A program made the position numbers and the translations under genes. A DNA stretch of 64,000 bases from an uncultured Fibrobacteraceae bacterium (GTDB taxonomy: Bacteria > Krumholzibacteriota > Krumholzibacteriia > LZORAL124-64-63), in the NCBI GenBank assembly GCA_964384055.1, contig CAYLIV010000012.1, positions 1,635 to 65,634 on the forward strand, written 5' to 3'. This document shows, piece by piece, positions 9,605 to 29,800 of this stretch. The notes under the pieces are model-generated. The model had not been told where the DNA came from. It saw only the letters and a program-made list of their open reading frames with translations, and did not search any database. How positions within the stretch are numbered: the first letter of the stretch is position 1; every line of letters begins with the position of its first letter.

Positions 9605-10981
9605 TCACCGCATGACCGTCAGCAGACGGCGCCGCACCTGGCTGCCGGTCTGCAGCCGCACGACGTACACACCGGTCGGCACCTTGCGGCCGGCGTCATC
9701 CTTGCCGTCCCAGGGTACGGTGGACGGTTCAGCGGCGTAGCTTCCGTGCGCCACCCGACGGACGACCCTGCCGCGCAGATCGACGATCTGGATGGCTGCT
9801 TCACCGGCGATCGCCAGCTGGAAGTGCAGGGTGGTCCCGTCCCGGAAGGGATTGGGCGTGTTGGGGCTCAGGGCGAGGTGGCGCGGTGCCGGCGGCGGCG
9901 GATCGGGATCATCGCCGGGGATGACCGGGTCGGCGGTCACCAGAGTCATCTGCGACGGATCGCCGACGCCCAGTTCGAATGGCGCGGCCGCCGCTTCCTC
10001 GATCCACGGACAGGGCTTTTCCGCGTAGCTCGCCGCAGTGCGCTGGGCGTTGATGGTATCCCGCGCCCAGTAGTCGTTGGTCACCGGATCGGTACTGACC
10101 AGCAGGGTATTGGGCGTCTGCTCGGGATAGAGGTCCCATCTCTGCGGCAGCGCATTCGGGCCGCCCGTGAAGGTGCCGCGCAGACAATCGGTGACCACCA
10201 GGCAGGTACGGTCCTTGATGCTGGCGTGGTTGTTGAGGGCCAGCATGCCGGGAATATCGCCGCACAAGCTCGAGGGCGTACACGAGCCGTAATGGTTCTT
10301 GAGAGCGACGGAGATCTGGTTGAGCGCGTTGTTGTGGCTCTTCAGGACCGGAATATTTATCAAGTAGTCGCAGTCCAGCAGGGTGCGGGACAGCTCGTAT
10401 TGCCCGTAGGGGAACTCGCCGGATCCGACCGCGTCGTTGTCGCCGGTCAGGGTGGGGCAGGCGCTGCCGAAACAGAAATCCTCCTGCGCGTAAGCGAAGC
10501 GCGTGATGTCGTGGTTGTCGAAGACGATCACGTGGCTCACGTCGTAACTACCGCCGAGCATCAGCGACAGACCCGAAACCACCCCGCGCACCACTTCCGG
10601 TCGCGTGTACGTGGGCCCGAGGGTGTTGACCTTGATGGCGATGGTCGAGGCGGCGTGCAGCCCGGGAAAGAGGGAAGCGAAGGCCTCGCCTGTGTCGTCG
10701 AGCTGGGTGAGCAGCCGGACCCCGTTGTGAATCGTGGCCTCGACCTGGTCGCGATCGATGACGGGCTCGTGACCGCCGAGCGCGGGATCGTGACAGAACA
10801 CGATACGCCCGGGCAAGCGGTTGCCGGCACCGTGCGGAGCGAGTCCGTCGAAGCGCGCCAGATGCCTGGCCATGGCAGGCGTCCCGGCGGCGGCCATGGC
10901 GCCCAGGGCGGAGAGCTTGATGAATGTCCGCCGGCTGGCGTAGAACCCGGAGAAGAAGCCGGCGTCGGTGTCGTGTTTCAT
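9605..10981 (-). CDS. Tat-exported DUF362 protein with FlgD-Ig/T9SS-like C-terminal domain
   Basis: SRRTFIK; KVN, INIPVLKSH, LKNHYG, GGP, TDPV; C-terminal PNPF...WDGKDDAGRKVPTGVY. Confidence 0.85.
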   Translation of the reverse strand: MKHDTDAGFFSGFYASRRTFIKLSALGAMAAAGTPAMARHLARFDGLAPHGAGNRLPGRIVFCHDPALGGHEPVIDRDQVEATIHNGVRLLTQLDDTGEAFASLFPGLHAASTIAIKVNTLGPTYTRPEVVRGVVSGLSLMLGGSYDVSHVIVFDNHDITRFAYAQEDFCFGSACPTLTGDNDAVGSGEFPYGQYELSRTLLDCDYLINIPVLKSHNNALNQISVALKNHYGSCTPSSLCGDIPGMLALNNHASIKDRTCLVVTDCLRGTFTGGPNALPQRWDLYPEQTPNTLLVSTDPVTNDYWARDTINAQRTAASYAEKPCPWIEEAAAAPFELGVGDPSQMTLVTADPVIPGDDPDPPPPAPRHLALSPNTPNPFRDGTTLHFQLAIAGEAAIQIVDLRGRVVRRVAHGSYAAEPSTVPWDGKDDAGRKVPTGVYVVRLQTGSQVRRRLLTVMR

Positions 10982-11007: not shown

Positions 11008-12387
11008 CTACCGTGCCACTACCAGTCGCTGGCTTCTGACCAGTCGTCCTACCTGCAAGCGGGCGAAGTAGACACCGGTCGGTACGGCTCGCCCGTGGGC
11101 ATCCTTGCCGTCCCAGGACAGGCTGCTGTATCCCGCCGGGAAGCCGTGGCTGACCAGGTGCCGCACGAGTCGGCCGCGCAGATCGACGATCTGGACCGTG
11201 GCATCGTCGGCGGCGGCGAGCCGGAAGCGCAAGGTCGTGCGGTCGCTGAACGGATTGGGCGCGTTGGGTGCCAGGAAGGTGCCGCCCACCAGCAGGCCCG
11301 GCTCCTCCTCGACCCCGGTCGCATCATCATACAGGATCGTCATCTGGTGCGGATCGCTGACGCCGAGAAAGTACGGCTCTGCCGACGCCTGCTCGATCCA
11401 GGGACACGGCTTGGGGTTCCAGCCGTGGGCTGCGCGCTGCGCGTTGATCATGTCCCTCGCCCAGTACTCGTTGGTCACCGGATCGGTGGTCACCAGCAGG
11501 GTGTTGGGCGTCTCCTCGGGATAGAGGTTCCAGTCCATGGGCGGCGTGCTCGGGCCGCCGTTGAAAGTTCCGCGGATGCCGTCGGTGAGCACCAGTACCG
11601 TCTTGGGCTTGATATACTGATCCGTGTTGAGGGTCAGCATGGCGTTGATGTTGCCGCACATGCTCGACGGCGTGCACGAACCGTAATGGTTCTTCATGGC
11701 CACCGTGATCTGGTTGTTGCCGTCGCTGTGGCTCTTCAGGGCGGGTATGTTGATCGCGTAGTCGCAATCGATGAGGTACTGACTGAGCTCGTAGATGCCG
11801 TAGGGAAAGTAGTCCGAATTCCACGCGTTGTTCCCGCCGCTCAGCGTCGGGCAATTCCCGTTGAAGGTGAAACGTTCGGGCGTGTATCCGCGGTTGGAGA
11901 CCGGATCGCGGTCGTAGATGACGACATTGCTCACGTCATAGGTGCCGCCGAGCATCCGGGACAGGCCCGAGACCACGCCGCGCGCCACTTCCCAGCGCGA
12001 GAAGCAGGTACCGATGCAGTTGACCTTGATGGCGATGGTCGAACCGGCGTGCAGTCCGGGAAACAGCGATTCGAAGGCGAGATCCGTGCCGCTTTGCTGG
12101 GTCAGCAGTTCCACGCTGCGGAACACCGCGGCCTCGACGGCATCCACGTCGGGAGTGCCGTGGCCGTTCATGTCCGTGTCGTGGCAGATGACGATCCGAC
12201 CAGGTAACGTGTTGCTGCGACTGGCTTTCGGGTTTTGGCCGTCGAACTGGGCGAGATGCCGGGCCATGGCCGGGGCGCCCGCCATGACCATGGCGCCCAG
12301 GGCCGAGAGCTTGATGAACTGCCGCCGATCGGGGTAGAAACCCGAAAAAAAGCTCGTCGAGTTATTCCGCGTGTCGCTTTTCGCCAT
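11008..12387 (-). CDS. Tat-exported DUF362 protein with FlgD-Ig/T9SS-like C-terminal domain (tandem paralogue of 9605-10981)
   Basis: DRRQFIK; KVN, INIPALKSH, MKNHYG, DGIRGTFNGGP; C-terminal PNPF...WDGKDAHGRAVPTGVYF. Confidence 0.85.
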   Translation of the reverse strand: MAKSDTRNNSTSFFSGFYPDRRQFIKLSALGAMVMAGAPAMARHLAQFDGQNPKASRSNTLPGRIVICHDTDMNGHGTPDVDAVEAAVFRSVELLTQQSGTDLAFESLFPGLHAGSTIAIKVNCIGTCFSRWEVARGVVSGLSRMLGGTYDVSNVVIYDRDPVSNRGYTPERFTFNGNCPTLSGGNNAWNSDYFPYGIYELSQYLIDCDYAINIPALKSHSDGNNQITVAMKNHYGSCTPSSMCGNINAMLTLNTDQYIKPKTVLVLTDGIRGTFNGGPSTPPMDWNLYPEETPNTLLVTTDPVTNEYWARDMINAQRAAHGWNPKPCPWIEQASAEPYFLGVSDPHQMTILYDDATGVEEEPGLLVGGTFLAPNAPNPFSDRTTLRFRLAAADDATVQIVDLRGRLVRHLVSHGFPAGYSSLSWDGKDAHGRAVPTGVYFARLQVGRLVRSQRLVVAR

Positions 12388-12549: not shown

Positions 12550-15500
12550 CTAGCCCCGGATCTGCAAACGCAGGCGAATATCGTGGTCCGTGATCCACGC
12601 GGCGCCGTCGTCTCGGGATCGACTCCAGCCGTACTGCAACTTCACCGAGAAATTCCGCTGCGGGCGGACGCTGACCGTCGCCGTCAGCGCCTGCTTGCGC
12701 GAGTTGTCGCTGCCGGCGGTGACGCCGGGCGAACGGTCTTCTGCGCTGGACCAGGTGAGCGAACCGCCCAGGTTGGCGTCGAGCTGCCAGCGCTCGCGAC
12801 GCCAGGTGATCCGGGCCTGGGGGCTCCAGAGGTTTTCGCGCTGCCCGACCTGGCCGGTCCAGGAGTCGTTGCGCTGCGCTTCCAGGGCCACGAAGGTGAG
12901 CAGACCGCCGCCCCAGGTCTGATCCCACTGTCCGAAGAAACGCCGGCGTTCGAGCCGGTTGAAGAAGGACTCGCTGTCGCTGCCGATGGCCCGCACGGTC
13001 ACGAGTCCGCCGCGCGGTCGGATCTCCAGTCGACTTTCGAGTTGCCGGCTGTCGCTGTCGGTGGTCAAGCCTTCCTGGACCAGCGAGCCGGATTCCATTT
13101 GCCAGCGTTCGATCAGCCGCACGCGCGAGAAGAGCTGCACTCTGGTTTCGAAGACGTCGCTGCGCGATCGGTTGCGTCGCGACACGGCATCCGCCGCGCC
13201 GAACAGGTTGCCGGTCGCCGGCTGCGCGATCCCCGGTTCACCGTTCTCGTTGTCGGTCACGCCGATGTCCCAGCGTAGCGAGAGGCGTGACAGCTGCTTC
13301 GACAGGCGCCCGGGATAGAAGTGCATCGTGGTCAGCAGCACGCGATTGGTGGCGAAACCGCCGCTGCCACCGCCCGGATACCAGAACAGGTTGCGGTCGG
13401 CCTCGTAACGCAGGTAGGCGTCGAGGCTCGCGTGCGGCTGCGACTGCAGGGTGGCGTCGACCTCCTGGAAGCGGCGCAGATCGCGCGCCGTAGCGCTTCC
13501 GGACTGGAAAGTGCGGCTGTCCTCGAACGCGACGTTCCAGGACAGGGGATTGCCGGCCGATCCGTTGAGGCGTACGAACGCATGGTTCGTGCTGCGCCGC
13601 AGGCCGCCGTCGACGCGCGGGATGCCGGCACTGTCCTCGTCGTCGGTCGCAAAATCGCGATCGCTGCGCTGGAAGAAGGCGCGCAACCACAACCGGCGAA
13701 TGCCCAGGGCAGCCAGTCGTCGCCGGTCGGGACTGAGTTCCAGCTCGGCGCGGCTGACCCATTTTTCGCGGCTGGCGCCCGCGGCGTCGATGTCCACGCG
13801 TCCGCGTTTCACCTCCAGGTTCGGCCAGCCCGAGCGTCGCCAGCGTACCGTGCCCATCAAGGTCGATTCCTCTCCACGGCCCGTACCCGGCTCGGTCTGC
13901 GTGCCGGCAGCGAACACATCGCCCGCCGCCACCTGGTCCGACGCCGAGCGGTCCCATTCGATTTCCGCCTGGAGCTGCTGGTTCACATTCCACAGGCCGC
14001 GCGCTCGCGACTGCTCGCGCAACCTGCCCAGCAGCGTGCGGCGATCCTCGAAGGAACGATAGTCCGCACCCAGGTCCCGGTGCCGCGCCGAGAGTTCGAG
14101 GCCGCGGTAGCGGCCTTGCACGCCGAGGCTCGAGGCGCGACCGGGATTCTCGTTCGCCGATCCGCCGCCGGCAGAGGCGGCTGTCTGGCTCACGGCCATT
14201 TCCGGGGTCAGGCGCAGCAGGTAACGATCGTCTTTCCACTCCAGGCGCGCGTTCAGATCCGCAGTCGTGACGTCGCTGCCGTCCGCGTCCGTCCAGCGGG
14301 TGGCGCCGGCGCCGGCATAGACCTGATCGCTGGGCGAAATCCCCACCTGGGCGGCACTGATCATGCTGTCGTCTTCGTCGTCGTTCGACGAGGCGCGCAG
14401 CCCCACCTCGTACAGATATTCGACCTCGATCACCGAGTCCTCGTCGAGCAGCACATGTTCGAACAGGACGAACAGGCCGCTGGTGTGAATCAATGAATAG
14501 TCGACGCCCGCCTGCAGGAGCTCCCGATCGATGATTATGCGTTCGGACCCCGGGACCAGATCGCGGTGACCGAGCTGGTAGGTGTTGCGCGTCGCCTGAT
14601 AGCTGTAGTTGAAGGTATACACGTTGGTGGACGGATCGGCGTACACCTCGTCGGGAAACGGCTGCGCCGCCGGCAAGGCGAGCATGCCGGTGATGGGGCT
14701 GAAGCGATGCGGATCGACCAGGCCGTCGCCGTCGGTGTCAAGGCCGAACGACTCGAGATAGGGTGTGCCCGAGACGTCGGCGATCGCGCCGTTGGTATCG
14801 ACCAGGGCGACCGCCAGCGAACCCGGCACCGGGTCCATGGCGATCCAGTAGTGGTTACGCAGGGCGAGGTGGGTCAGCTCGATCTCCGCCTCGGCGCCGG
14901 GCGGTGCGCCCGTGTTGTGCACCGCGACCAGGGCGTGATCGGCTGCCAGCGCCGCGGCGAGCACCAGCGAGTCGCCGCGCGGTCCGATCACGTAGTCGAC
15001 GTTGGGCCGCAGTCGATCCCAGGCGCCCGCGACACCGGCCAGTTCGCCGTGAATCGTGTTGGCGTTGTCGGAGAGGTCGTCCTTGTCGTCGCGATAGACA
15101 GACGCCTCGCGCAGATCCGCGGCGGTCCAGGCGGCGGGTAACGGAAACACCGCGCCGGCTGCGTAATCGACGTCCCGGGTGGAGGTCTCGACAAGTTGGT
15201 TGCCGCCCAGGAAAACGTCGCGTCCCGGTTTGGTGCGTCGCCGTCCGACCCAGGCGTCGGCGGCCACCCGGCGGCGACGTGAGCCGGCCAGCCGTTCGCC
15301 CAGCTCGGCGCGCACGCGACCGCCACGCAGGCCGGTACCCGGGGTCAGGTCGGTGTTGAAGGGCGTCATGTCGATCTCGCCGACACTGACGGTCCGCAAC
15401 ACGTCAGTGCGGCGGCCACGAAAGGTCAGCTGGTAGGCGGCGTTGTCCGGATCGGTGCTGTCGTAAAAACCGCTGAGGGTGCGGTCCTCGCTCACCTGCC

Positions 15501-16866
15501 CGGTGAGCAGGAGATCGAGTCGCGTTTCGGTCGCCAGGTCGCCAAGACCGGTGGTGCCCGCGGCGCTGTCGTCGTCTTCGACGAAGATCGTGGCACCGCC
15601 CTTGAGGTGCAGATCGGCCCCGCCCGGAGTTTCGACGCCCAGCCCGGCCTCGTCCAGACCGACCCGCCAGCCGGCTTGCGCGGGATCGGCATCGGCCAGC
15701 GCAGATTCCAGGATTTCCCGGCTGCGGTAGGAGAAGAGACTGGGATTGTCCTGGCCCTGGCTCAACCCGTAGACGATACGCTCGTCGCCGAGCAGCACGA
15801 GGGTCTCGCCGAGCCAGGCCAGTTCGTGGACCTCGGCGGGCGCCATGGGCACGCTGGTGGTGAAATCGATCCAACGGCCCGTTGTCCGCTCGTACACGGC
15901 GAAGGCTTGTTCGGTCACGACCCAGAAACGATCCGGCGCCACGGCGACGCTGCGCACCCGTCGGCCGGGCATCTCGTTGTTGGAATCGTCCCGGCGCCAG
16001 ATGCCCGATTCGGCCAGAAAACTCCACAGACCGTCGTCGGTACCGAGCCACAGATCGTTTCCCTGCTGCACGAGCTGGTGGATCCGAGCGTCCGGCAGAT
16101 CGACACCCGGCAGATAGCTCGTCCAGGTGTGCAGATCGGTATCGTAGCGGGCGATGCCGGCATCCGTCACCGCGTAGAGTACGCCGGTGCCCTCGCGCAG
16201 GGCCAGCACCCGCGGCGAGTGGAGATGGCCGAGCCGCTCGTCGATGCGAAAGCTCTCGGCGTCCTTGCGATACTCGGCGACACCGTGTTCGAGGGCGAAC
16301 CAGGCATACTGGTCACCCACGGCCACATCGGCCACCGGGCCCAGAGGCACGCCTTCGGGACCAGGCAAGGGTTCCCATTCGAGGATGAACTGGTCGAAGC
16401 GGGCGGCGCCGGCGTCGGTGCCCGCGTAGGCGTAGTCGGCGTCGGCGTCCACGTCGAAGACCAGACGGCCCGGATAGCCTTCGCCGGGGCCGTAGCACTG
16501 CCAGTCGTCGAAGCGCAGATCCGAGACACAGGCGCGTTTGCCTCCGATCCAGAGGTTGGCGTCGGCAACGGAGAAGCCGCCCAGGGGTGCGCCGGGAAGC
16601 CCGTCGGCGGCCGTGGTGGTGGTCCAGGTCTCGGAGTTCGGCTGGAAGCGATAGAGCGCGGCCGGGGTGAGGATCAGTATGCGGTCCTCGTTCTCGATGA
16701 TGCGGGGGCGGAGATCCTCGGGCGAGGTCGCGCCGAAGGGCTGCAGCTCGTCGAGGCCGGCCGCCGGCCCGGCACCGAGCAGCGCCGCCACCATGACGAG
16801 GGGCCACGGCGACATCGCCAGAAAGCCCACCGGCCGAACCGTCCGCGCGATGTGCGCGGGTATCAA
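12550..16866 (-). CDS. Large outer-membrane protein (about 1438 aa): signal peptide, beta-propeller, SprA-like region and C-terminal beta-barrel strands
   Basis: TTG start overlaps the upstream TGA, with RBS GAGGAG. Repeated propeller blades (LWLGTDDGL, AYAGTDAGAARF). SprA-like motifs GQVSEDRTLSGFYDST, VGEIDM, PNVDYVI, VPGSERIIID...GVDYSL. Amphipathic beta-strands to the C-terminus. Confidence 0.72.
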   Translation of the reverse strand: MIPAHIARTVRPVGFLAMSPWPLVMVAALLGAGPAAGLDELQPFGATSPEDLRPRIIENEDRILILTPAALYRFQPNSETWTTTTAADGLPGAPLGGFSVADANLWIGGKRACVSDLRFDDWQCYGPGEGYPGRLVFDVDADADYAYAGTDAGAARFDQFILEWEPLPGPEGVPLGPVADVAVGDQYAWFALEHGVAEYRKDAESFRIDERLGHLHSPRVLALREGTGVLYAVTDAGIARYDTDLHTWTSYLPGVDLPDARIHQLVQQGNDLWLGTDDGLWSFLAESGIWRRDDSNNEMPGRRVRSVAVAPDRFWVVTEQAFAVYERTTGRWIDFTTSVPMAPAEVHELAWLGETLVLLGDERIVYGLSQGQDNPSLFSYRSREILESALADADPAQAGWRVGLDEAGLGVETPGGADLHLKGGATIFVEDDDSAAGTTGLGDLATETRLDLLLTGQVSEDRTLSGFYDSTDPDNAAYQLTFRGRRTDVLRTVSVGEIDMTPFNTDLTPGTGLRGGRVRAELGERLAGSRRRRVAADAWVGRRRTKPGRDVFLGGNQLVETSTRDVDYAAGAVFPLPAAWTAADLREASVYRDDKDDLSDNANTIHGELAGVAGAWDRLRPNVDYVIGPRGDSLVLAAALAADHALVAVHNTGAPPGAEAEIELTHLALRNHYWIAMDPVPGSLAVALVDTNGAIADVSGTPYLESFGLDTDGDGLVDPHRFSPITGMLALPAAQPFPDEVYADPSTNVYTFNYSYQATRNTYQLGHRDLVPGSERIIIDRELLQAGVDYSLIHTSGLFVLFEHVLLDEDSVIEVEYLYEVGLRASSNDDEDDSMISAAQVGISPSDQVYAGAGATRWTDADGSDVTTADLNARLEWKDDRYLLRLTPEMAVSQTAASAGGGSANENPGRASSLGVQGRYRGLELSARHRDLGADYRSFEDRRTLLGRLREQSRARGLWNVNQQLQAEIEWDRSASDQVAAGDVFAAGTQTEPGTGRGEESTLMGTVRWRRSGWPNLEVKRGRVDIDAAGASREKWVSRAELELSPDRRRLAALGIRRLWLRAFFQRSDRDFATDDEDSAGIPRVDGGLRRSTNHAFVRLNGSAGNPLSWNVAFEDSRTFQSGSATARDLRRFQEVDATLQSQPHASLDAYLRYEADRNLFWYPGGGSGGFATNRVLLTTMHFYPGRLSKQLSRLSLRWDIGVTDNENGEPGIAQPATGNLFGAADAVSRRNRSRSDVFETRVQLFSRVRLIERWQMESGSLVQEGLTTDSDSRQLESRLEIRPRGGLVTVRAIGSDSESFFNRLERRRFFGQWDQTWGGGLLTFVALEAQRNDSWTGQVGQRENLWSPQARITWRRERWQLDANLGGSLTWSSAEDRSPGVTAGSDNSRKQALTATVSVRPQRNFSVKLQYGWSRSRDDGAAWITDHDIRLRLQIRG

Positions 16867-17801
16867 CCCAACTCCTCGACCCGTAAACTCGTCAGATCGA
16901 GCGTGCCGAGGCCGTGCTCGGCGGCGTAGCGGAGATAGGCGACCTGTTCGGGCCGCAGCGTCATGCTGTTCCAGGTGGCCAGGCCGGTGCCGTAGGCGTC
17001 GACCGCTACCGGATCGGTACCCACGACCACGCCCCCGAACGGATCGGTCTGGCCCGGACCCTGCGGTCCACCGGTCTTGAGGATCACCGCGGCGTCGAGA
17101 ATGGTCAGTTGCGGCTTGAGAACCGTCGCCAGGTCGGCGACGCCCTGATGCAGATCCATGTCCTGATGGAAGCACTCCCGGTTCCAGATCAGGCCCATCA
17201 GGTTCTTGATGCCGAAACTGACACCGGTCGCCGAATGGGATTTGGCCGTGGGCAGATTGATCAATACGTCGGCCTTCTGTACGGCGGCGGGAATAGCCGT
17301 CTCGTGCAGCGCCTTGCCGGCGGGTACGGCGACCGGGCGGTACGTCTTCTCCTTGTCGAGGGAAACGAGCTTGGCCTTGGTAAATGCGGCAACCGCCGCC
17401 TCGGTGCCGTTGATCTGGAAACAACGCTGCGGATCGCTCATGGTGTGGTCGACCACCAGCACGCGCCGCGCGCCGGCACCGAGGCAGGCGTCGATCACGG
17501 CGGAGAGCACGTCCGGGTGGGTGGTGGCGCCGAGCTCCGGCGGCCGCGGGAAGCTGGCGTTCGGTTTGACGATCACGACCTGGTCCGGCTTGACGAAACG
17601 TTCCATGCCGCCCACGGCGGCCAGCGCGGCCGCCACGGCGGATCGCGGTTCGCCCCGCGCCAGCACAAGATCGGGCGGATCGGCTGCGCCGGCTTCAGCC
17701 GGTGTATCGGCGTGGGCCACGTCCAGCAACCGCGCCGGCGGCAACAGCAGCCCGGCTCCGATCAGACGCGCACCAGCTGACAGGAAATATCGTCGTTTCA
17801 T
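16863..17801 (-). CDS. Tat-exported stand-alone DUF362 protein
   Basis: MKRRYFL; VIVKPN, ATTHPDV, INLPTAKSH, GIKNLMG, GGPQG, DPVAVD; RBS GAGGAG. Confidence 0.9.
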   Translation of the reverse strand: MKRRYFLSAGARLIGAGLLLPPARLLDVAHADTPAEAGAADPPDLVLARGEPRSAVAAALAAVGGMERFVKPDQVVIVKPNASFPRPPELGATTHPDVLSAVIDACLGAGARRVLVVDHTMSDPQRCFQINGTEAAVAAFTKAKLVSLDKEKTYRPVAVPAGKALHETAIPAAVQKADVLINLPTAKSHSATGVSFGIKNLMGLIWNRECFHQDMDLHQGVADLATVLKPQLTILDAAVILKTGGPQGPGQTDPFGGVVVGTDPVAVDAYGTGLATWNSMTLRPEQVAYLRYAAEHGLGTLDLTSLRVEELG

Positions 17802-17861: not shown

Positions 17862-18470
17862 TCAGCTCGTGATTTCCTGAACGATGTGCTGCGCCATCAG
17901 GGTCATGACCGTCAGCGTATCGTTGGCGAAGCTGCTGAACAGCAACGTGACCACGTACTGGTCCTGGCGCAAATGGACGGTGTAACTGCCCAGGTCCTGT
18001 TGCGAGTAGGCCTCGGTCCCGATGCCGTTCATGGCCGTCCATGAGCCCTCGATCGTCAGTTCCTCCAGCACGGCGGCCGCATTGTCGACATCGGTCTGGT
18101 CGTAGATCTGGATCGTGCCATTGGCGGTGTCGGTGCCGATGGTGCCGGTGTAACTCTGTTCGACCATCTCCTGGAAGCCGTAGGTGGCGAACAGCTCCCA
18201 GCCGCCGTTGATGATGTCGTTGAGTTCCGTATCGTTGGTGGCGATGCTGGGCTCGCCCGTCTGGGCCAAGCTGGCGTCGCCGGGTGGGAGAAAATCTCGA
18301 GGGTGTTTCGTCGTCGATCCGTCTTCGCTGCAGCCGGCGGCCAGTAGCACCAACATCACCAGCAGCACCGAAGACATGCGCCGCAGACTCGCGGCGCCGG
18401 AGCGGCGGTCGCTTTTCTCTCGGATCCGGTCGGGTCGGCTCACGGGTTCGCTGTGGATACCTGGCGTCAT
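17862..18470 (-). CDS. DUF6599-like lipoprotein
   Basis: Lipobox LAAG-C; IINGGWELFATYGF, IQIYDQ. The start may be the ATG at 18377. Confidence 0.65.
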   Translation of the reverse strand: MTPGIHSEPVSRPDRIREKSDRRSGAASLRRMSSVLLVMLVLLAAGCSEDGSTTKHPRDFLPPGDASLAQTGEPSIATNDTELNDIINGGWELFATYGFQEMVEQSYTGTIGTDTANGTIQIYDQTDVDNAAAVLEELTIEGSWTAMNGIGTEAYSQQDLGSYTVHLRQDQYVVTLLFSSFANDTLTVMTLMAQHIVQEITS

Positions 18471-18749
18471 TCTCTTCCCTTCCTGCCGTTATGAGCGCTG
18501 CTGAGGGGATCCGGAGCTCGAATTGCGTCTAGTATTCTACCACCTGTGTCCATGCCTCACAATCCGCGAATGCAAGAGCCACGAATGCAGGAGCCGTTGC
18601 CCGGATCGCACCCCGCGCTGGACCGGGGGCGGGTTCCGGTAAAGATGAACCACCAACGGCCGATACCATCAGCATACCTGATTTGACGAGTGGCCGCACG
18701 AGCAGATCGTCGCGGTACGGGCTGTGGACAAGGAAAACACCCTGAGCGG

Positions 18750-20504
18750 ATGATCAAGGACGAACTGACAACAGCCAACTGCGGCATTCTCGACCACGTT
18801 CCCCTCGGTATGTGCGTGATCGGTCCGGATTTCACGGTTCGCTTCTGGAACCGTTGCCTCGAGAAATGGACCGGCATCAGCTATGGGGAAATCGTCGGTA
18901 CGGTGATTCTCGATCACTTTCCACATTTTGGCGAACCACACTATTTCTCGACGCTGGAGAGCCTGTTCCACGGCGGCCCGCCGGTCGTCTTCGCCTCGCA
19001 GCAGCACGGTATCCTCTTTCCGCCCAGGCACGCGGAGCAGGAGCCGCGGGTCCAGGTCACCACGGTCACGCCAATCCCCGATTCGGACGGCTACTCCTTC
19101 GCCGCGTTGATGGTCATCGAGGACGTGACCGAACTTACCAGCCGCATCGAGGCCTACAAGAAGATGCGCGACCAGGCGCGGATGGAGATCGAGCAACGCA
19201 AGCAGGCGGAACGGCAGCTCAAGGCGGCCAAGCAGGAGGCTGATTCGGCCAACGAGGCGAAATCGGTGTTCCTGGCCAGCATGTCCCACGAACTGCGTAC
19301 GCCGCTCAACAGCATGCTGCTGCTCTCGAAGCACCTGGCCGACAACAGGGACGGGAACCTAACGCAGCGGCAGATCGAGTCGGCGGAGACGATCAACAAG
19401 GCCGGTCATGACCTGCTCGACCTGATCAACGATATTCTCGACCTGTCGAAGGTCGAGGCCGGAAAGGTCGAGTTCGAGATCACCGCGGTCGATCTACGGG
19501 AGTTCACCGAGGACCTGGGGCGGACCTTGCGCCCCCTTGCCGTCCAGAAGGATCTCGAATTGAAGATCGAGATTGCTGAAGATGTACCGTCCAGCATTAT
19601 TTCGGACGGTCAGCGAGTGCATCAGATCGTCAAGAACCTCGTCGCCAACGCCATCAAGTTCACCGAAACAGGCAGCGTGACCGTCGGTGTCGAGCGACCG
19701 GTCCTTTCGGCCGAACCACCTGCCGGCGAGGCCTCGTCGCAGCCGCTGATCACAATTTCGGTGACCGACACGGGTATCGGGATTCCGCCAGGAAAACAGC
19801 ATTTGATCTTCGAACCGTTCAAGCAGGAGGACGAGACCACGTCCCGGAGATACGGCGGCACGGGACTGGGCCTGTCGATTTCCAGGAGCCTCGCCGAGGC
19901 CCTCGGCGGCAGCCTGTCCGTGACCAGCACGCCGCAGGTGGGCAGTACATTCACCCTCACGCTACCTGAGACCGCACCGGAAGCGCTGGGCCGAGCCGCC
20001 GAGCCGGCGGCCGTCGGCCAGGCAGCCGGGCCGCAGACCGGCCGGCACGACGAAACCACCGCCGGTCCGGTGGACGACCAGACTATGATTCTGGCTCAGG
20101 ACCAGGACGAGACGGTCTCCTTCGCGAACCAAAAGGTCTTGCTGGTCGATGACGACATGCGTAACAGCTTCATCCTGACCTCGATGCTCGAGGATCTGGA
20201 TGTGGACGTCAGCGTGGCGGCCAACGGGGCTGAAGGTCTGGAGCGACTTTACGCGGATCCCGAGATCGATCTGGTGCTGATGGACATCATGATGCCGGAG
20301 ATGAACGGCTACGAGGCCATGGCCGAGATCCGCCGGCGAGACGAGTACCGCGACCTGCCCGTCATCGCAATCACCGCGCTGGCCATGGCCGACGACCGCG
20401 AACGCTGCCTGGCCGCGGGCGCCACGGACTATCTCGCCAAGCCCTTCGAGTTCTCCGCGCTCTGTCGCCTGCTTCGGCAGAGATTGCCGGTCGGACAGCG
20501 TTAA
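18750..20504 (+). CDS. PAS-domain hybrid sensor histidine kinase with C-terminal receiver
   Basis: PAS-like N-terminus (FWNRCLEKWTG), MSHELRTPLN, NAIKFT, DTGIGI, GGTGLGL, REC domain (VDDD, MDIMMP, LAKP). Confidence 0.93.
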   Translation: MIKDELTTANCGILDHVPLGMCVIGPDFTVRFWNRCLEKWTGISYGEIVGTVILDHFPHFGEPHYFSTLESLFHGGPPVVFASQQHGILFPPRHAEQEPRVQVTTVTPIPDSDGYSFAALMVIEDVTELTSRIEAYKKMRDQARMEIEQRKQAERQLKAAKQEADSANEAKSVFLASMSHELRTPLNSMLLLSKHLADNRDGNLTQRQIESAETINKAGHDLLDLINDILDLSKVEAGKVEFEITAVDLREFTEDLGRTLRPLAVQKDLELKIEIAEDVPSSIISDGQRVHQIVKNLVANAIKFTETGSVTVGVERPVLSAEPPAGEASSQPLITISVTDTGIGIPPGKQHLIFEPFKQEDETTSRRYGGTGLGLSISRSLAEALGGSLSVTSTPQVGSTFTLTLPETAPEALGRAAEPAAVGQAAGPQTGRHDETTAGPVDDQTMILAQDQDETVSFANQKVLLVDDDMRNSFILTSMLEDLDVDVSVAANGAEGLERLYADPEIDLVLMDIMMPEMNGYEAMAEIRRRDEYRDLPVIAITALAMADDRERCLAAGATDYLAKPFEFSALCRLLRQRLPVGQR

Positions 20505-20569: not shown

Positions 20570-22399
20570 TCAGATGGAAGGTGCAACCACGGTGGCGGCG
20601 TCCGTCGGCAGTTCGTCGATGATCCGCTTGAGCTGCCGAGTACGCAGCGGTTTCGTCAAGTAGGCGTCCATGCCCGCTTCACGGCAGCGCGCGCGGTCTG
20701 CCGCCATGGCGTGGGCCGTCAAGGCGACGATGGGAATCCGGTGGCCGGTAGCGGCTTCTTCGCTGCGGATGGCGGCCGTTGCCTGCAGGCCGTCCATCTC
20801 CGGCATCTGCACGTCCATGAGGATCAGGTCGAACGTACCGTCTCGCCAGGCCTGGACACCCTCTTTGCCGTTCTGGGCCAGCTCGACCGTATGGTCCCAT
20901 TTGCGTAGAATACTCATGACCAGTTTCTGATTGACGACGTTGTCCTCGACGACCAGAACCCGCAAACCACAATCGGCGGCGTCGTGGGCCGGGGACGCCG
21001 AATCGTGCCCGGTCGTCTTCGCCGGTGCCTGCGCGCTCGATGACAGCTGTGCTGTGAATTGGAAGGTCGAACCCTTGCCCTCCGTGCTCTCGGCCCAGAT
21101 GTATCCGCCCATCATCTGCACGAGTTGCGCGCTGATGGAAAGGCCGAGCCCGGTGCCGCCGTACCGGCGCGAGGTCGAACCGTCGGCCTGGGTGAAATCC
21201 TCGAAAATGGTCTGCAGCTTGCCCGCCGGAATTCCGATTCCCGTATCGCGGACGCTGCAGTTGAGCTCGACATCCTGGCCGCCGAGCGACGTACTCGACA
21301 TGGTGACGACTATCTCGCCCGCCGGTGTGAACTTGATGGCGTTGCCGACGAGATTGACCAGAACCTGTCGGATGCAGCGGGCATCGCCGAACAGGCGATC
21401 GGGCAGGGTGTCGGCGATCTCGCAGCGCACGGTCACGTTCTCGTCGTCGACCCGCAGGGCCAGGCCGGGCAGCATCTTCTCGACCAGCGTCCGTGGATCG
21501 AAATCTTCCTCGTGGAGTTCGAACTTGCCGGCCTCGATCTTGGACAGATCCAGGATGTCGTTGATCAAATCGAGCAGCGTCTCGCCCGAAAAATGCACCA
21601 GTTCCAGATGTTCGCGTTGGTTCCGTTTCAGATCGGTCTGCAGCACGAGTTCGGTCAATCCGATGATGCCGTTCATCGGCGTACGGATCTCGTGACTCAT
21701 ATTGGCCAGGAACTCGGTCTTGGCTCGGCTGGCTTTCTCGGCCTGCGTTCTGGCCGCCTCGAGCAACCGGGCCTGTCGCTTCAGCCGTTCCTTGGATACG
21801 ATCAGCTGGATGAACTGGTCTTTCTGGATCCTGGCCTGGACGATCATGTAGACCAGGCTTGTGCCCAGCAGGCCGGCCAGCGCGTAACCCTGGCTCCCAC
21901 CCTCGACCACGCAGGCGGCGATAGCCGGCGCCAGGACGGCCACGACGAGGGTGCGGGTAGTTCCCATGCTCGCACTCAGCGACGATGTGCCGCCCCCTAC
22001 CAGGGCGGAGACGATAACGAGAGCGAAATAGGATGTCCAGGCCACCCCGTAGGATAGTACGGACCAGCCGGCCACGATACCCATGGTCAGGGCAGACGTA
22101 CCGACCAGGACAGTAAACAGTCGGTGCCAGGCGAGCGGATTCTGTCGGTAGATCGATGCGATGCGCCGGCTGATGATCAGGCGCAAGACCCCCGATATCA
22201 GCAGTACGCCGCCCGCAATGGCCGTCCACCATGGGAAGTCGGGGTAGAAGGGTGTCAGTACGCAGAGTAGTGCGAAGAACGCGACATACACCAGACCGCC
22301 GCTTGCGCCTCGCTCGGCGAGGCTTCGGCAAGCCTGGCTGTGGATCACTTCCCGCGACGGAAGCCACTGATCGTGCTGGTCCGTGTCGTGATGTAACAC
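20570..22399 (-). CDS. Membrane-bound hybrid sensor histidine kinase with receiver
   Basis: N-terminal multi-TM sensor, [32 protein letters not shown] domain (VEDN, MDVQMP, LTKP). Confidence 0.93.
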
Positions 22400-24019: not shown

Positions 24020-24266
24020 TATATACTTGCTTGTAACAAGTGACATCGTTGCAGTCATTCGACACTATACGTTGTGGTACTGAACGTATGTTCATTGTTC
24101 CGTGGGATAGGAGTCGGTGGTACGGGGTCAGCGTTCGTGGGGCGAGTCGTGGATGCGACTGCCCGTGCGGAGGTTGATCGACTGATTTGGCCAGTCGTTT
24201 CTTGAACGGGATCGGGCTCGCGCGCAGCGTGAGTGAACGATCCTTACCGTCTCCTGGGGGGCACCG

Positions 24267-26870
24267 ATGATCGCCGCCGGGATCAACGCTCGCCGATCGT
24301 ACTGGTCGGTCGTACTGATGCTATTCGCATTGACGATCGCCGGCCGTGATGCGCTTGCCGATCGCGACGGCGGCAATGTCGTGTGCGTCCCCGACACGCT
24401 CCAGATCACCACGGACGACGATATCGGCGGCGGCGTCTACGCCGACGACATGGTGGTCAGTTATCTCGGCGGCGGTTCCGCGGACCTGTGGGGCTTTTCG
24501 GTCGTCTTTACCTGGGATCCGACCATCGTCTCGGTCGCCATCAATCCGCCGGCGAGCGGCGCCTTCGCCAATCTTGCCGACGAAGGCTTCTTCGTTCCCC
24601 TGATCGACAACGTGGCCGGCTCCGCGTCGGTCAATTGCGCCATCGGCGGTACTCTGCCGGGTACCGCGGCGGACGATCTGTTCATCGTCACCTTCACGGC
24701 CGTCGCCTCGGCGGTCGACGCGTACACACCGGTCGTCTTCGGTACCTGTCTGTACCGCGACGCCGACAACGAAGACCTGAGCGGCATGGTCGAAAACGAC
24801 GGGCTGCTACACGTGTTTCTCCCGCCCGACGCCGGTGTCGCCTGCGTGCCGCTCAATCTGGAGATCAGCCTGGCCGACCACATCGGCGGCGGTGTCTACG
24901 CGGATGACCTGGTTGTCAGCTATCTCGGGGGTGGTTCGGCGAACCTCTGGGGGTACTCGGTTGCCTTTACCTGGGATCCGGCGCTCCTGTCGGTCGCGGT
25001 CTCGCAGCCCGCGAGCGGGGCCTTCGCCAATCTGGCCGAAAACGGGTTCTTCATCCCGACGGTCGACAACGGCAGCGGATCGGCTTCGGTCGATTGCGCC
25101 ATCGGCGGCACCTTGCCCGGCACTCCGGCCGACGACCTGTTCGTCATCACCTGCACGGCCCTCGGGACGCCCGCCTACGCGACGACGCCGGTCGCCTTCG
25201 GCGCCTGCGTGTATCGGGATTCCACCAACGCGGATATTCTCGGTATCGACGAGACCGACGGCACGGTGGTCGTCGATCTCGTGGCGCCGGTGGTCTCGGC
25301 GGTCGCCATGGTCAACAACACCCTGGCGCACACCGACGATTATCTGAAAAACGGCGACGAGCTCACCATCACCGCGACGGTCACCGATGCCCACCCGTTG
25401 TTCGCCCGTGACAGCATCACGGCCGATCTCAGTGGACTGGGCGGCAGCACGCAGGCGAATCCGGGCACGTACGATGGTCTGACCGCTACCTGGGTCGCGG
25501 ACGTGGGCAGCACCAGCCCGGCCGACGGCGTGGTCAGCGTTCCGGTGCTGGCGACCGATCCGCTCGGCAATAGCGGCAGCGACAGCGGCACCATCACCGC
25601 CGACAACACGCCGCCGGTCCCGCTGACCGGACTGGTCGCCACGCCCGGCCACCGCAACGTCGATCTCGTCTGGGACGATCCTGCCGGCGCCGACCTCAAC
25701 TACTACGGCGTGGCGGTGCGGTACCGGACGTGGGGCGACTATCCGGAATACGCCACGGCCGCGCCGGCATACCCTGCCGATCACACCGCGGGCCTGCTGG
25801 CGCTGACGGCGGCGGGCACCGGCGCCAGTCACTCCTTCGCCGGCGACGACCGCGATGTCTACTTCTACGCCGGTTTCATCTACGATCTGGCGCTGAACTA
25901 CAGCCCGACCGAGGGCGGCGGAGCCAACGAGGACCGGGCGACGAACTACTGGCTCGGCGACGTCAGCGACGGCACCTATGGCTTCTACGACGGCTACCTC
26001 GACATCGCCGATGTGACCGCGCTCGGCAGCAGCTATGGCCTCAACGACGGCGAACCGGGCTACAAGAACGAATGTGACGTGGGTCCGACCCACAACGGTA
26101 GCGCCTTCGGCGTGCCCGAGCCCGACGATCTGGTGAAGTTCGAGGACCTGATGATCTTCGCCATGAACTACACCGTGATCACGCCGCAGAAGAGCCCGCT
26201 CGCCGCCGGCGAACCGGCCCTGGCCTGGCGCCGGATCGGCGATCGCTCCTGGGTTCTCGAACTGCTCCTACCGGAAGGCGGACAGCAGGTCAGCAACCTC
26301 AAGGGCCTGAGTCTGTCGGCCCCGCTGCCGCCCGGCACGAGCGTGAGCGTCGAAGGCGGGGCGTTGCTCGGCCGCCAGCCGACGCCGGTGTTCCTGAAAA
26401 ACGTGGCGGCCAACGGGCTGGACCTCGGGCTGGCGATATTAGGCAGCGACGTGGGCTTCGCGGGCAGTGGCGAGCTGTGTGTGGTCGTCACGAGCGACGT
26501 CATCGATCTGAGCCGGGTCAGTATTCGTGCCCGAGGCGTGGACAACGTCGAATACAGCCGGGTAACGGAGCCGGTGGCCGCCGATCTGCCCAAGGCCTAC
26601 GTGCTGGAGCAGAACTTCCCGAATCCGTTCAATCCGCAGACGACCATCCGCTTCGGTCTGCCCGCGGCGCAGGAGGTCAGCGTGGCGGTTTACGGCGTCG
26701 ACGGCAGCCGGGTCCGAAAGCTGCTCGCCGGTTCGCTTGACCCGGGCTATCACGAAGTCAGCTGGGATGGCCGCAATGACCGCGGGGCGACGGTCGCCTC
26801 CGGAATGTACTTCTGCAAGATCGTCGCCGGACAGTTCAGCGATGTACGTAAGATGGTCCTGGCGAGGTAA
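24267..26870 (+). CDS. Secreted modular protein: two cohesin-like domains, Ig/FN3-like domains, dockerin-like domain, FlgD-Ig CTD
   Basis: Signal peptide; tandem repeat with GFSVVFTWDP...DLF..TF; NYWLGDV..DGYLDIAD and DVGPT...DDLVKFEDL Ca-loop-like segments; PNPFNPQTT CTD. Confidence 0.75.
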   Translation: MIAAGINARRSYWSVVLMLFALTIAGRDALADRDGGNVVCVPDTLQITTDDDIGGGVYADDMVVSYLGGGSADLWGFSVVFTWDPTIVSVAINPPASGAFANLADEGFFVPLIDNVAGSASVNCAIGGTLPGTAADDLFIVTFTAVASAVDAYTPVVFGTCLYRDADNEDLSGMVENDGLLHVFLPPDAGVACVPLNLEISLADHIGGGVYADDLVVSYLGGGSANLWGYSVAFTWDPALLSVAVSQPASGAFANLAENGFFIPTVDNGSGSASVDCAIGGTLPGTPADDLFVITCTALGTPAYATTPVAFGACVYRDSTNADILGIDETDGTVVVDLVAPVVSAVAMVNNTLAHTDDYLKNGDELTITATVTDAHPLFARDSITADLSGLGGSTQANPGTYDGLTATWVADVGSTSPADGVVSVPVLATDPLGNSGSDSGTITADNTPPVPLTGLVATPGHRNVDLVWDDPAGADLNYYGVAVRYRTWGDYPEYATAAPAYPADHTAGLLALTAAGTGASHSFAGDDRDVYFYAGFIYDLALNYSPTEGGGANEDRATNYWLGDVSDGTYGFYDGYLDIADVTALGSSYGLNDGEPGYKNECDVGPTHNGSAFGVPEPDDLVKFEDLMIFAMNYTVITPQKSPLAAGEPALAWRRIGDRSWVLELLLPEGGQQVSNLKGLSLSAPLPPGTSVSVEGGALLGRQPTPVFLKNVAANGLDLGLAILGSDVGFAGSGELCVVVTSDVIDLSRVSIRARGVDNVEYSRVTEPVAADLPKAYVLEQNFPNPFNPQTTIRFGLPAAQEVSVAVYGVDGSRVRKLLAGSLDPGYHEVSWDGRNDRGATVASGMYFCKIVAGQFSDVRKMVLAR
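24378..25280 (+). repeat. Intragenic tandem duplication of a cohesin-like domain (period 459 bp, 153 aa)
   Basis: IGGGVYADD.VVSYLGGGSA.LWG.SV.FTWDP...PASGAFANLA..GFF.P..DN...CAIGGTLPGT.ADDLF occurs twice, starting at 24378 and 24837. Confidence 0.9.
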
Positions 26871-26893
26871 ACAGACAGACAGATGGCAGCCGG

Positions 26894-29800
26894 GTGGGAG
26901 CCGGCGCCGCATCAATCGCGAAGGGACGTTTCGTGCCGAGTCGATCGGGATTACTGGCGCTCATGCTGCTGACGAGCTGGCTGCTCGTCGTGCTGCCGTG
27001 CGCCGGCCGGGCCGCCACGTTGCTGGTGCCGACCGAGTACCCGACGATCCAGGACGCCGTCACGGCTGCGTCCGCGGGTGACAGCGTGTCGGTCGCCGCC
27101 GGCACCTACGAAGAGCAGGTCTGGATCACGCAGAACATCACCGTTCTCGGCGCCGGCAGTGACCAGACCATCGTGCGCAGTCCATTGACGCTCGGCCACA
27201 CCTTCGATGTCGACCACAAGGCAGTGGTATTCGTGGAGAATGCCGATGCGGTGACCCTGGTCGATCTGGGCATCGACGGCGCCGATCGGGCCACCGCCGC
27301 CTTCGTCCAGGTCGGTATCGGTTTTCTCGACGGGGGCGGTGTCGTCACCCGCTGTGAGATCGCCAATCTGCGTGAGGCGGTCATGAGCGACACGCAGACC
27401 GGTCTGGGCATCTACGCCTACAACGCCGGTGGCGCGCCACGCACGATCGCGGTCGACGAAGTGGACATCCACCACTACCAGAAATCCGGGGCGGTCTTCC
27501 GGGGCGCGGCGCTGACCGTGGCGCTGGACGAGGCGACCGTTACACCCGGCGAGATCAGCCCGGCGGTGCAGAACGGCATCGAGATACTCACCGCAGCAAG
27601 CGCCATCATCACCGGCGGGTCGGTCACGGACCACCGCTACGAGGAGATGGTGCTCGCCGAGACCTCCGTCGGGATTCTCGTCTCCTTGGCCACCTCTTGC
27701 GATATCACGGGCGTGAGCATCACCGGCAACCAGTCCGGTGTTTATCTGCACGAGACCGCAGGCACGCTCGAGGCGTGTTCGATCGTGGGCTGGGACGACG
27801 CCCTGGCCGAGCACGGCGTCGTGGTCGGGACCATCGACGGCCGGGCGCAGCCGCCGCTGGGAATCGCGGTACCGTTGCCGGCGGTGGTCGTTGAGGGAGA
27901 GGACGCCGAGAAGGGGACCAGAGATCCGTGGACGAGCTTCCAGATGACCGGCTGTACCCTGACGGGGTACCAGCAGCTCGCTACGGCCGGTCTCGTGGTC
28001 AATGTCGTGGACCAGCCCGATCCGGTTGTCGTCGACCTGGTCGAATGCCGATTCACCGCCTGGGATTACGGTGTCCAGCTCTGGAACACCAATTCCACCG
28101 TCGAGGCGACGGTTCACCTCGGGCATCTTGCCGATAACCTGAGCTATGGCCTGTTCTCCGACTCGCTACAGCCGGTCGACGCCCGCAATTGCTGGTGGCA
28201 GGCGACTGACGGCCCGGCCGGCGTCGGCCCCGGCTCCGGCGATGCGGTCAGCGCGAACGTGCTGTTCGATCCCTGGCTCGGCGGTCCGGTCGGATTGAGC
28301 ATCTACCCCGGTAACGGTGGGCTCATCAACTGCTACCGCTCGGTAACCTTGACCTTCCACTACGTTCCCGGCGCTTCCGCTGAACCCATGCGCGGATTCG
28401 AGATCTATGTGGATACCGGCAGCGAACTGGATTTCTCGGCGGCGGACGTGACCGACAGCGGCGAGCTCGGCGCCATCGGCGACCACTTCTTCGAGGCCCT
28501 CGACGAGGTGGATGGCTCGGTTTCGGTCACCGACGTGCTGCTGGGACCGACCCCGGGGCTGACCGCGGAAGCGGATCTGTTCACCATCACCTTCCACGGC
28601 GCGGACACGGGGACGGCAACCGTGGGCATCACCGCCTACGATCTGCGCGATTTGGCAAACCAGGGCATCGGCGTCGCCGGCGTTTACGACGCGTCGATCG
28701 AGGTGGACTGCCTGGCACCCACCGCCGTCGACGGTATCATCGCCGAACCGGGGCACCAGCAGGTGGTGCTGACCTGGAACGGCTCGCCGTCGGCCGATCT
28801 GCTTGAATACGAGATCTGGCGCGGTATGTGGTACGACACGACGCCCGGCGATTCAGCCTATCCGGAGTACAACAACCTGCCCGGTAATACCCTGCCCACC
28901 CGGCCACCGAGTCGGTTCAGCGCGTTGCTCAGCGACGAGTGGGAGCTGGCCGGCGTCGTACCGGCCGACTCGCTGTCGTTCGTCGATACCGGCGACACCA
29001 CGCGCGGTGTGTACTACTACGAGGTCTACGCCCGCGATATCGCGTTCAATTTCAGCCAGTACGCGATGGAGAACAGCGGCGCCACCAACTACTGGCTGGG
29101 TGACTTCACCTGGGACGGCTATGTCGACAACGCCGACATGTCCTTCCTCGGCTCGACCTTCACCACGGCCATCGGCGATGCGGACTACAAGGCCCAGGCC
29201 AACGTGGGGCCCACCGACGGCTCCACGTCAACCGACATTCCCCATCCCAACAACGTGGTCTATTTCGAAGACCTGACCATTGCCGCCGTCAACTTCGACA
29301 TGATCGGCGGCGGCAAGCTGGACGACGGGAGCGGGCATGACCACCTGCCCGTGCCCCTGGCCTGGGAGGAAATCGACGCCGGTGTCTGGTCGTTGCTGCT
29401 ACGCGAGGCCTGTCCGCATTTGCAGGCGCTGCACCTGCAGGCCGAACTGCCCGACGACGTCGTAGCTACCGTACAGCCCGGTCAGATGCTCGCCGCCTTG
29501 CCCGATCCGTTCTTCCTGCATCCGGGTACGCCGCGGAACCTGGACATCTGCCTGGCGATCCTGGGCCGCAACCGGGGCTTCGGGCAAGCGGGCGAGATCG
29601 TGCGGATCACCCTGTCCGCGATGCAGCACAGCGGTGGCGAGGCCGCGGCGTTCTGGCAGTCTCTGGGTCTGGAACTGGACCTGGTTTCGAATACCCTGGC
29701 CGATCTGGAATACTCGTTGACCCAACAGAATCCCGACCGACCGCCCAGTGTCGCCGTGCTCTACCAGAACGTTCCCAATCCCTTCAATCCGCGGACGACC

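Follow-up and report, generated by a model that had tools for sequence, protein, structure and literature searches.

The 64,000-nt stretch analysed here (the window; positions 1,635 to 65,634 of contig CAYLIV010000012.1, GenBank assembly GCA_964384055.1, from an uncultured bacterium of the Krumholzibacteriota; G+C content ~64%) encodes, in a single minus-strand open reading frame (ORF) that ends at 12550 according to the ORF list and the translation of the window, a protein of ~1420 amino acids (aa) in which an N-terminal beta-propeller precedes a predicted giant outer-membrane beta-barrel. Profile-profile alignment and the predicted fold show this protein to be a divergent, remote member of the SprA/Sov superfamily, the founding member of which, SprA, is the outer-membrane translocon belonging to the T9SS (type IX secretion system). 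To our knowledge, SprA is the largest single-chain outer-membrane barrel known, and its gating and cargo exit are still being worked out. An earlier interpretation of the same DNA, made from the letters alone (hereafter, the sequence-only reading), had described a shortened SprA relative with a fused N-terminal propeller. This description is confirmed by profile-profile alignment, the predicted fold and propeller matches, and is further supported by the existence of a clade of such proteins. The gene and its modules are as follows.

12550..16866, minus strand: gene for the propeller-fused SprA-superfamily outer-membrane protein (ORF and translation; stop codon at 12550-12552)
16756..16866, minus strand: signal peptide region (..HIARTVRPVGFLAMSPWPLVMVAALLGAGPAAG), read by eye from the sequence
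15700..16734, minus strand: N-terminal Reg_prop-like beta-propeller, aa 28-372, eight ~42-aa repeats forming 7-8 blades
15196..15630, minus strand: first barrel strands ('nbar'), aa 396-540, homologous to SprA residues ~100-250 (PDB profile, hhalign, long strands in the model)
14584..15195, minus strand: insert domain, aa 541-744, with RLRPNVDYVI, LRNHY, FGLDTDGDG and GMLALP..QPF (gap analysis, domain hidden Markov model (HMM), hhalign)
14380..14583, minus strand: small beta domain, aa 745-812 (VPGSERIIIDRELLQAGVDYSL..IEVEYLYE), which of the SprA-like motifs is the most conserved (TIGR04189, hhalign)
12553..14379, minus strand: C-terminal barrel, aa 813-1421, with 29 long strands, or 30 when aa 795-803 of the small domain are included (AlphaFold2 pLDDT mostly >90)

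The motifs on which the sequence-only reading was built are all present in the translation, collinear and placed as it had reported them: RLDLLLTGQVSEDRTLSGFYDST lies at 15454-15522 and VPGSERIIID at 14527-14556 (both on the minus strand), and YQLTFRG, RLRPNVDYVI, LRNHY, FGLDTDGDG and GMLALP follow one another in this order between the two. The search with SprA_N and SprA models that it had proposed gave a divided answer, as the existing models fail on the protein when applied directly and profile-profile alignment is significant. The NCBIfam model of the T9SS outer membrane translocon Sov/SprA (TIGR04189) matched with only 20.5 bits (E 5.5e-5) against a cut-off of 200 bits, and the match was limited to aa 728-800, corresponding to profile positions 578-651; the same weak match is present in 20 out of 34 family members. 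Pfam SprA_N (PF14349) was absent at E <= 1, as it is from the precomputed annotation of close homologues, and Pfam assigned nothing to the protein beyond a sub-threshold Reg_prop repeat. In a PDB search with a profile of 49 homologues, residues 165-251 of F. johnsoniae SprA (6h3i_A) were matched at E 0.044. This weak match and the one to TIGR04189 are mutually collinear.

The relationship becomes clear once intermediate sequences are considered. When a profile restricted to the SprA-like part (A5) was run against a set of 1.84 billion representative proteins, it collected 518 of them at E <= 1e-3, including 196 at E <= 1e-10. Among these are proteins of 1300-2080 aa that have no propeller, matched with E values of 1e-24 to 1e-13. 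One of them, P0143, scores 282 bits on TIGR04189, above the 200-bit cut-off, others score 196, 186, 161 and 120 bits, and Pfam SprA_N is found in one of these relatives. Alignment with hhalign of A5 to an alignment of 21 SprA-like proteins, including P0143, gave a probability of 100% and an E value of 1.1e-38 over 460 columns (aa ~398-873 of the protein studied here), in which LRNHY pairs with ELKNxY of the SprA consensus, FGLDTDGDG with GLDxxxDG, GMLALP..QPF with GIL.FPD..PF and PGSERIIIDRELL..GVDYSL with GSExVxVxGxxLxRDxDYxIDY. Likewise, A5 aligned with P0281, a full-size SprA from Candidatus Eisenbacteria, at a probability of 97.8% (E 8e-13, 24% identity). The homologous segment is the N-terminal ~480 aa of the SprA-like part, and the order of its modules (first strands, insert, small beta domain) is that of SprA. 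In particular, the insert domain (aa 541-744) is common to SprA, since the insert-domain HMM recovers it in the same order in the relatives that have no propeller; it is deleted in a subclass of ~1200 aa. The homology to SprA is real but remote.

The predicted structure extends the similarity to the whole barrel. An AlphaFold2 model of aa 375-1421, computed from the 49-sequence alignment, has a pLDDT of 86.8 and a pTM of 0.78. When it was compared with the PDB using Foldseek, the first four ranks were all taken by SprA (8gl6_A at 3.3e-21, followed by 8gl8_A, 6h3i_A and 6h3j_A; E 3e-21 to 2e-14; TMq 0.49-0.62, with 0.61 quoted beside E 3e-21), so that the best structural matches are not the TonB-type or unrelated barrels which the sequence-only reading had named as speaking against it. 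MtrB came next (1.7e-7, TMq 0.25), then SlpA, and TonB-dependent receptors appeared at ~1e-5. A TonB-dependent receptor was considered and rejected, because neither Pfam Plug nor TonB_dep_Rec was found and the TMq of such receptors (0.18-0.21) lies far under that of SprA; a generic porin is likewise ruled out by the Foldseek ranking. Moreover, a full-length model of a 1181-aa homologue (pLDDT 88.1, pTM 0.87) again had SprA as its best barrel match, at 4.5e-7.

With regard to size, the sequence-only reading was right about the length of the chain, as the SprA-like part comprises ~1050 aa and the F. johnsoniae SprA chain deposited in the PDB 2403 aa, and the strand-rich C-terminal region of the protein appears in the model as 30 consecutive long strands. 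However, the smaller barrel that it had deduced from this length finds no support in the model. According to the model's secondary structure, the 30 strands, each of 9-18 aa, run from aa ~795 to the C-terminus and are joined by loops of no more than 20 aa, a limit that holds for every loop in the C-terminal 600 aa, and a further 6-8 long strands lie between propeller and insert in two independent models. Taken together, the secondary structure is consistent with a barrel of probably ~36 strands, as many as SprA is reported to have (PMC10994853). This count is backed by the TMq of 0.61 on SprA compared with 0.25 on the 26-strand MtrB. Given a short protein with short loops and ~36 strands, the reduction from the 2100-2500 aa of SprA to ~1420 aa is probably best explained by loss of the extracellular cap and loop inserts rather than of strands. 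Indeed, all that appears to be left of the SprA-type inserts is the ~200-aa insert and the ~65-aa small domain; nearly all long loop inserts, and hence the cap, are missing as judged from secondary structure.

The propeller was delimited by its eight repeats of ~42 aa, counted by eye in the translation (aa 28-372). Pfam Reg_prop (PF07494) scored 13.6 bits on the protein itself, below the gathering cut-off of 20.4 bits, and a single-sequence phmmer search of the PDB returned just one weak propeller match. The evidence from homologues is considerably stronger: P0032 carries PF07494 in its precomputed annotation, the 49-homologue profile matched the propeller of a hybrid two-component system (HTCS) sensor in the PDB (4a2l, E 1.2e-8; 3ott, E 4.5e-5), Foldseek of the full-length model of homologue P0037 retrieved the BT4663 propellers (E 4e-11), and the secondary structure of a homologue model contains ~31 short strands in the propeller region. 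The likeness to the sensors BT4663 (4A2L/4A2M) and BT4673 (3VA6), and to PorZ (PF21544), lies in repeat type and fold. Unlike in those proteins, where a tandem pair of propellers sits on a kinase or the propeller belongs to a surface protein with a C-terminal sorting domain (CTD), here a single propeller is carried by an outer-membrane barrel, and the protein's own Reg_prop score stays below threshold. Weak PorZ_N_b_propeller matches were observed in the relatives P0054 and P0055. Among relatives made up of propeller alone, the former is the closest to the fused propeller: its 1354 aa are Reg_prop/PorZ-like propeller repeats almost throughout and lack a barrel.

As the closest relatives of the propeller in both sequence and structure are the glycan-sensing periplasmic domains of HTCS proteins, the barrel could be envisaged as an uptake channel or sensor, in which the propeller binds a ligand, such as a glycan, that the barrel imports or presents. 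Two hybrid histidine kinase genes just upstream (18690-20504 and 20570-22399) and an ABC importer that follows the barrel gene in one distant locus (L003) could be accommodated by this scenario, but neither kinase nor ABC neighbours are conserved between loci, the TonB box and plug domain are absent, and the barrel is homologous to an exporter. We therefore regard uptake or sensing as highly improbable. The two genes just mentioned, which precede the conserved gene cassette described below, encode hybrid histidine kinase/response-regulator proteins on the plus and the minus strand, respectively, one with PAS domains. Of the other loci, only L002, with a response regulator and a histidine kinase, and L020, with a response regulator, also have signalling genes close to the cassette.

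To delineate the family, five local module HMMs (propeller, first strands, insert, small domain and C-terminal barrel) were used to sort the A5 matches, and two architectures emerged. The propeller class comprises 90 full-length proteins (Met start, at least 1000 aa) of 1006-1551 aa, every one of which carries the propeller (90/90), so that the constant fusion which the sequence-only reading had proposed to check is borne out across the clade. The insert of aa 541-744 is present in 66 of them and missing in 24. Members of the non-propeller class measure 1193-2082 aa and retain the module order, with the first-strands match, where detectable, starting ~90-300 aa from the N-terminus. SprA-like relatives have ~100-150 aa ahead of the first homologous strand, and it is this position that the ~345-aa propeller occupies here. 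In a neighbor-joining tree of 72 representatives based on 427 shared columns, propeller and non-propeller proteins were separated in 100 out of 100 bootstrap replicates. The tree shows the propeller proteins to form one monophyletic, previously undescribed clade, and the clean split indicates that the fusion happened once and defines the clade.

The closest homologues (53 proteins of ~1200-1550 aa) are labelled Candidatus Eisenbacteria or Krumholzibacteriota where a source is given, and a pattern scan of genome contigs yielded 11 close loci, labelled Eisenbacteria where given. For distant members, the sole label obtained by cluster look-up is 'Bacteroidota bacterium'. All clade members carry the annotation 'hypothetical protein', and in none of them is the barrel assigned to a Pfam family. 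In the literature library that was searched, nothing was found on short or propeller-fused SprA, on T9SS of Eisenbacteria/Krumholzibacteria or on DUF6599. SprA is usually described as 'Bacteroidota-specific'. The non-propeller SprA homologues (loci L016 and L017; P0212-P0330) include proteins of 1640-1850 aa labelled Elusimicrobiota/Endomicrobiales and of ~1950-2030 aa labelled Zixibacteria, and others labelled Coatesbacteria. The SprA superfamily spans ~1100-2500 aa and, extending well beyond Bacteroidota, reaches metagenome-assembled genomes (MAGs) with these labels (Elusimicrobiota, Zixibacteria and Coatesbacteria).

In the propeller clade, the barrel gene is nearly always part of a cassette, in the order: a gene for a DUF6599 lipoprotein, a gene for a DUF362 protein with a twin-arginine translocation (Tat) signal, the barrel gene, and then a gene for a protein with a type-A CTD. 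In the window, the other members of the cassette are the following.

17862..18470, minus strand: DUF6599 lipoprotein with lipobox LLAAGC (Pfam DUF6599), upstream, synteny kept
16863..17801, minus strand: CTD-less DUF362 protein (312 aa; Pfam DUF362, E 1.3e-47) whose twin-arginine signal reads KRRYFLSA, upstream of the barrel gene
11008..12387, minus strand: DUF362 paralogue with Tat signal (RRQFIK) and type-A CTD, candidate cargo (Pfam DUF362 and FlgD_ig/Por_Secre_tail; TIGR04183 28.9 versus 23 bits)
9605..10981, minus strand: second DUF362 paralogue with Tat signal (RRTFIK) and type-A CTD, candidate cargo (Pfam; TIGR04183 31.0 versus 23 bits)

Of the homologous loci, 15 retain upstream sequence, and in 14 of these the DUF362 gene lies immediately upstream of the barrel gene, usually with the DUF6599 gene ahead of it; a CTD-bearing gene is found near the barrel gene, usually directly downstream. 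All four components occur together in L001-L007, L010-L015 and L018-L020, and the cassette persists even where the barrel is only ~25% identical (L003 and L015). The upstream DUF362 protein is 52-64% identical in all loci but the most distant (42% in L003), and identities of the barrel among close homologues are 38-55%. Furthermore, in the barrel protein of L003 (P0055) a DUF6599-like segment (aa 589-658) is inserted right after the small beta domain, which argues for a physical association of DUF6599 with the barrel. At the same locus, DUF362 and DUF6599 genes are present in additional copies, alongside genes for NapH-like Fer4_5 proteins and for an ABC importer. DUF362 belongs to the same Pfam clan as the cofactor-binding N-terminal domain of LarA (PMC11770544), and by sequence neither DUF362 nor DUF6599 has relatives among solved structures. 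Elsewhere in the window, a DUF362 gene (Tat signal KRREFLQLSS; 46082-47458, plus strand) and a gene for a DUF6599 lipoprotein (LTAGC; 47364-48458, plus strand) form a pair without an adjoining barrel gene. Since such pairs occur barrel-free, DUF362 and DUF6599 seem to be partners in their own right.

The junction between the DUF362 and barrel genes bears on the choice of start codon. Translation from the ATG at 16815 gives 1421 aa, the GTG at 16830 is the start implied by a 1426-aa database entry, and the TTG at 16866, which the sequence-only reading had adopted, gives the longest version of 1438 aa. This TTG overlaps the TGA stop codon of the upstream DUF362 gene as TTGA (16863-16866) and would endow the signal peptide with an extra positively charged, Arg-containing n-region ahead of the hydrophobic leader MSPWPLVMVAALLGAGPAAG; the homologue consensus begins with a similar hydrophobic leader. 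Because 4-nt stop/start overlaps are also present at the same junction in L002, L015 and L020, the arrangement suggests that the two genes are translationally coupled.

Proteins with FlgD_ig/Por_Secre_tail-type CTDs are unusually abundant in the window (9605-10981, minus; 11008-12387, minus; 24237-26870, plus; 26852-30025, plus; 30026-30898, plus; 31672-34257, plus; 41900-44713, minus; 63616-63999, minus), among them an M28 peptidase, a sortilin/BNR protein and a beta-helix protein besides the DUF362 paralogues; the last ORF in the list is a partial one at the window end and bears a PNPFNPxTTI motif. Five window proteins, among them the products of both genes directly downstream of the barrel gene, pass the curated T9SS type-A sorting-domain model TIGR04183 with 24.4-31.0 bits versus a cut-off of 23. 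The window also encodes a tricorn-type protease of 1148 aa (49328-52774, minus strand) with PD40 propeller repeats, Tricorn C1, PDZ and peptidase S41 domains.

The window alone encodes six or more type-A CTD proteins with diverse functions, and no other SprA-like gene lies within its 64 kb. Both facts would fit the reading implied by the sequence-only description, namely that the barrel is the general, miniaturised T9SS translocon of the organism, which exports every type-A CTD protein and in which the propeller stands in for accessory factors, as would the result, given below, that no full-size SprA was found in the same genome. Two observations make this improbable, however. A search with the SprA-like alignment identified P0281, a protein of 2166 aa named 'cell surface protein SprA [Candidatus Eisenbacteria bacterium]' at NCBI and carrying Pfam SprA_N, so that a MAG of this group has a full-size SprA, encoded next to lptF-lptG. 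In addition, the DUF362/DUF6599 synteny remains tight even at 25% barrel identity, which is atypical of a housekeeping translocon. The non-propeller relative at L016 likewise adjoins lptF-lptG, so that the lptF-lptG-sprA arrangement was seen at both SprA loci examined, and the DUF6599/DUF362 cassette is absent from these two true SprA loci. A search with a further high-GC SprA-like protein (P0183) retrieved one relative only. The presence of full-size SprA in the phylum, together with the cassette of DUF362 and DUF6599 genes, indicates that the short protein is probably a specialised paralogue and not the organism's main translocon.

We thus favour, with somewhat better than even confidence, a reading in which the barrel is a protein-conducting channel of the outer membrane, derived from SprA and specialised for its own DUF6599/DUF362 cassette, with the neighbouring CTD proteins as its likely cargo. 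The ~480-aa SprA-homologous segment, comprising first strands, insert and small beta domain, would be completed by 30 further strands to a giant barrel of ~36 strands, which would conduct folded proteins as SprA does. In F. johnsoniae, SprA has an essential N-terminal extension, which lies in the periplasm and binds both SkpA and SprE (PMC10994853). The propeller, which would be periplasmic because it is N-terminal to strand 1 and takes the same position as the periplasmic N-terminus of SprA, could serve as a docking or gating module in place of this SkpA/SprE-binding extension; the sequence-only reading had suggested a possible cargo receptor, plug or sensor. The DUF6599 lipoprotein and the Tat-exported DUF362 protein would act as partners: the lipoprotein may supply the missing cap or plug, and either or both proteins could close or gate the uncapped pore. 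The cargo would be the type-A CTD proteins encoded directly downstream, here the two Tat-exported DUF362 paralogues, which are candidates because they pass the type-A sorting-domain model and have Tat signals. The full-size SprA would stay the general T9SS translocon. In sum, the protein resembles SprA (6H3I/6H3J/8GL6/8GL8) in being a single-chain giant beta-barrel, with SprA as its best Foldseek match, and in having a wealth of type-A CTD cargo encoded in its genome, whereas it differs in failing the TIGR04189 cut-off, in lacking SprA_N and in lying in a DUF6599-DUF362 cassette instead of an lptF-lptG context.

Several observations weigh against this channel reading. Between the C-terminal barrel and the C-terminal half of SprA, hhalign detected no significant similarity in sequence (probability 11%), so that homology in sequence covers only the N-terminal ~480 aa of the SprA-like part and the remainder is alike by predicted fold only. 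Secondary structure and topology rules are the source of the strand count and of the statements on the missing cap, on where the propeller lies and on any lateral opening. None of the T9SS core or partner genes (gldKLMN, porV, porU, PPI, Plug, SprE/PorW) was found in the 64-kb window or in the 10-kb flanks of the homologous loci. No genome was found to contain both a full-size SprA and the short paralogue: look-ups placed P0018, P0008 and P0046 in assemblies other than GCA_043815815.1, and a metagenome scan with P0281 came back empty. Two distant cassette loci contain NapH-like polyferredoxins and one an ABC transporter. Finally, the most conserved neighbour, the 312-aa DUF362 protein, is without a CTD, which by the logic of CTD sorting makes it a partner rather than cargo, and this is equally well explained if the barrel is the structural outer-membrane part of a DUF362/DUF6599 enzyme or electron-transfer complex instead of a secretion channel.

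The data as a whole fit such an enzyme complex almost as well as they fit the channel reading. In it, the giant barrel would hold or anchor both the DUF6599 lipoprotein and the Tat-exported DUF362 protein, the latter presumably with a cofactor, in the manner of the MtrB and LptD barrels described below. The invariant neighbours of the barrel gene are DUF362 (without a CTD) and DUF6599, DUF362 is better conserved than the barrel (52-64% versus 38-55%), pairs of Tat-DUF362 and lipoprotein-DUF6599 also occur barrel-free, and a DUF6599-like segment lies within one barrel homologue. The NapH-like Fer4_5 polyferredoxins at distant loci, the Pfam clan that DUF362 shares with the LarA N-terminal domain (PMC11770544) and MtrB as the best non-SprA Foldseek match point in the same direction. 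Nevertheless, the sole homologous system whose function is known translocates proteins, a gene for a CTD protein always adjoins the barrel gene, and the similarity to MtrB, with a TMq of 0.25, is generic; furthermore, multihaem CxxCH motifs were not seen on inspection of the cassette proteins, and DUF362 is not known to carry a cofactor. On balance, we consider an enzyme complex unlikely, although it is the alternative that deserves most attention. MtrB sheathes MtrA and contacts the lipoprotein MtrC, and LptD holds LptE; both of these barrels have 26 strands. The cassette recalls LptD-LptE and MtrB-MtrA-MtrC by analogy only, in that a large barrel is encoded with a lipoprotein and a periplasmic partner, and in LptD too a soluble N-terminal domain precedes strand 1, but homology is unsupported (TMq <=0.25), the strand number differs and the partners (DUF362 and DUF6599 here) are unrelated. 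A bolder proposal, which we regard as rather doubtful, is that the cassette constitutes a self-contained, previously unrecognised outer-membrane machine, either a T9SS-independent route for Tat-folded cofactor-bearing enzymes or a barrel-sheathed DUF362 enzyme or redox conduit that is capped by the lipoprotein and, in some lineages, fed by NapH-like polyferredoxins.

Under the channel reading, a half-size relative of SprA may represent a stripped-down or specialised version of the export channel. The clade can be viewed as a natural minimal SprA, in which the giant barrel and the N-terminal modules were kept, ~1000 residues of cap and inserts were dropped and the N-terminus was swapped for a propeller, and its comparison with SprA would separate the essentials of protein conduction from Bacteroidota-specific parts. 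The cassette also offers the first functional context for DUF362 and DUF6599, tying both to an outer-membrane channel, and suggests a route by which Tat-exported folded proteins may reach the cell surface.

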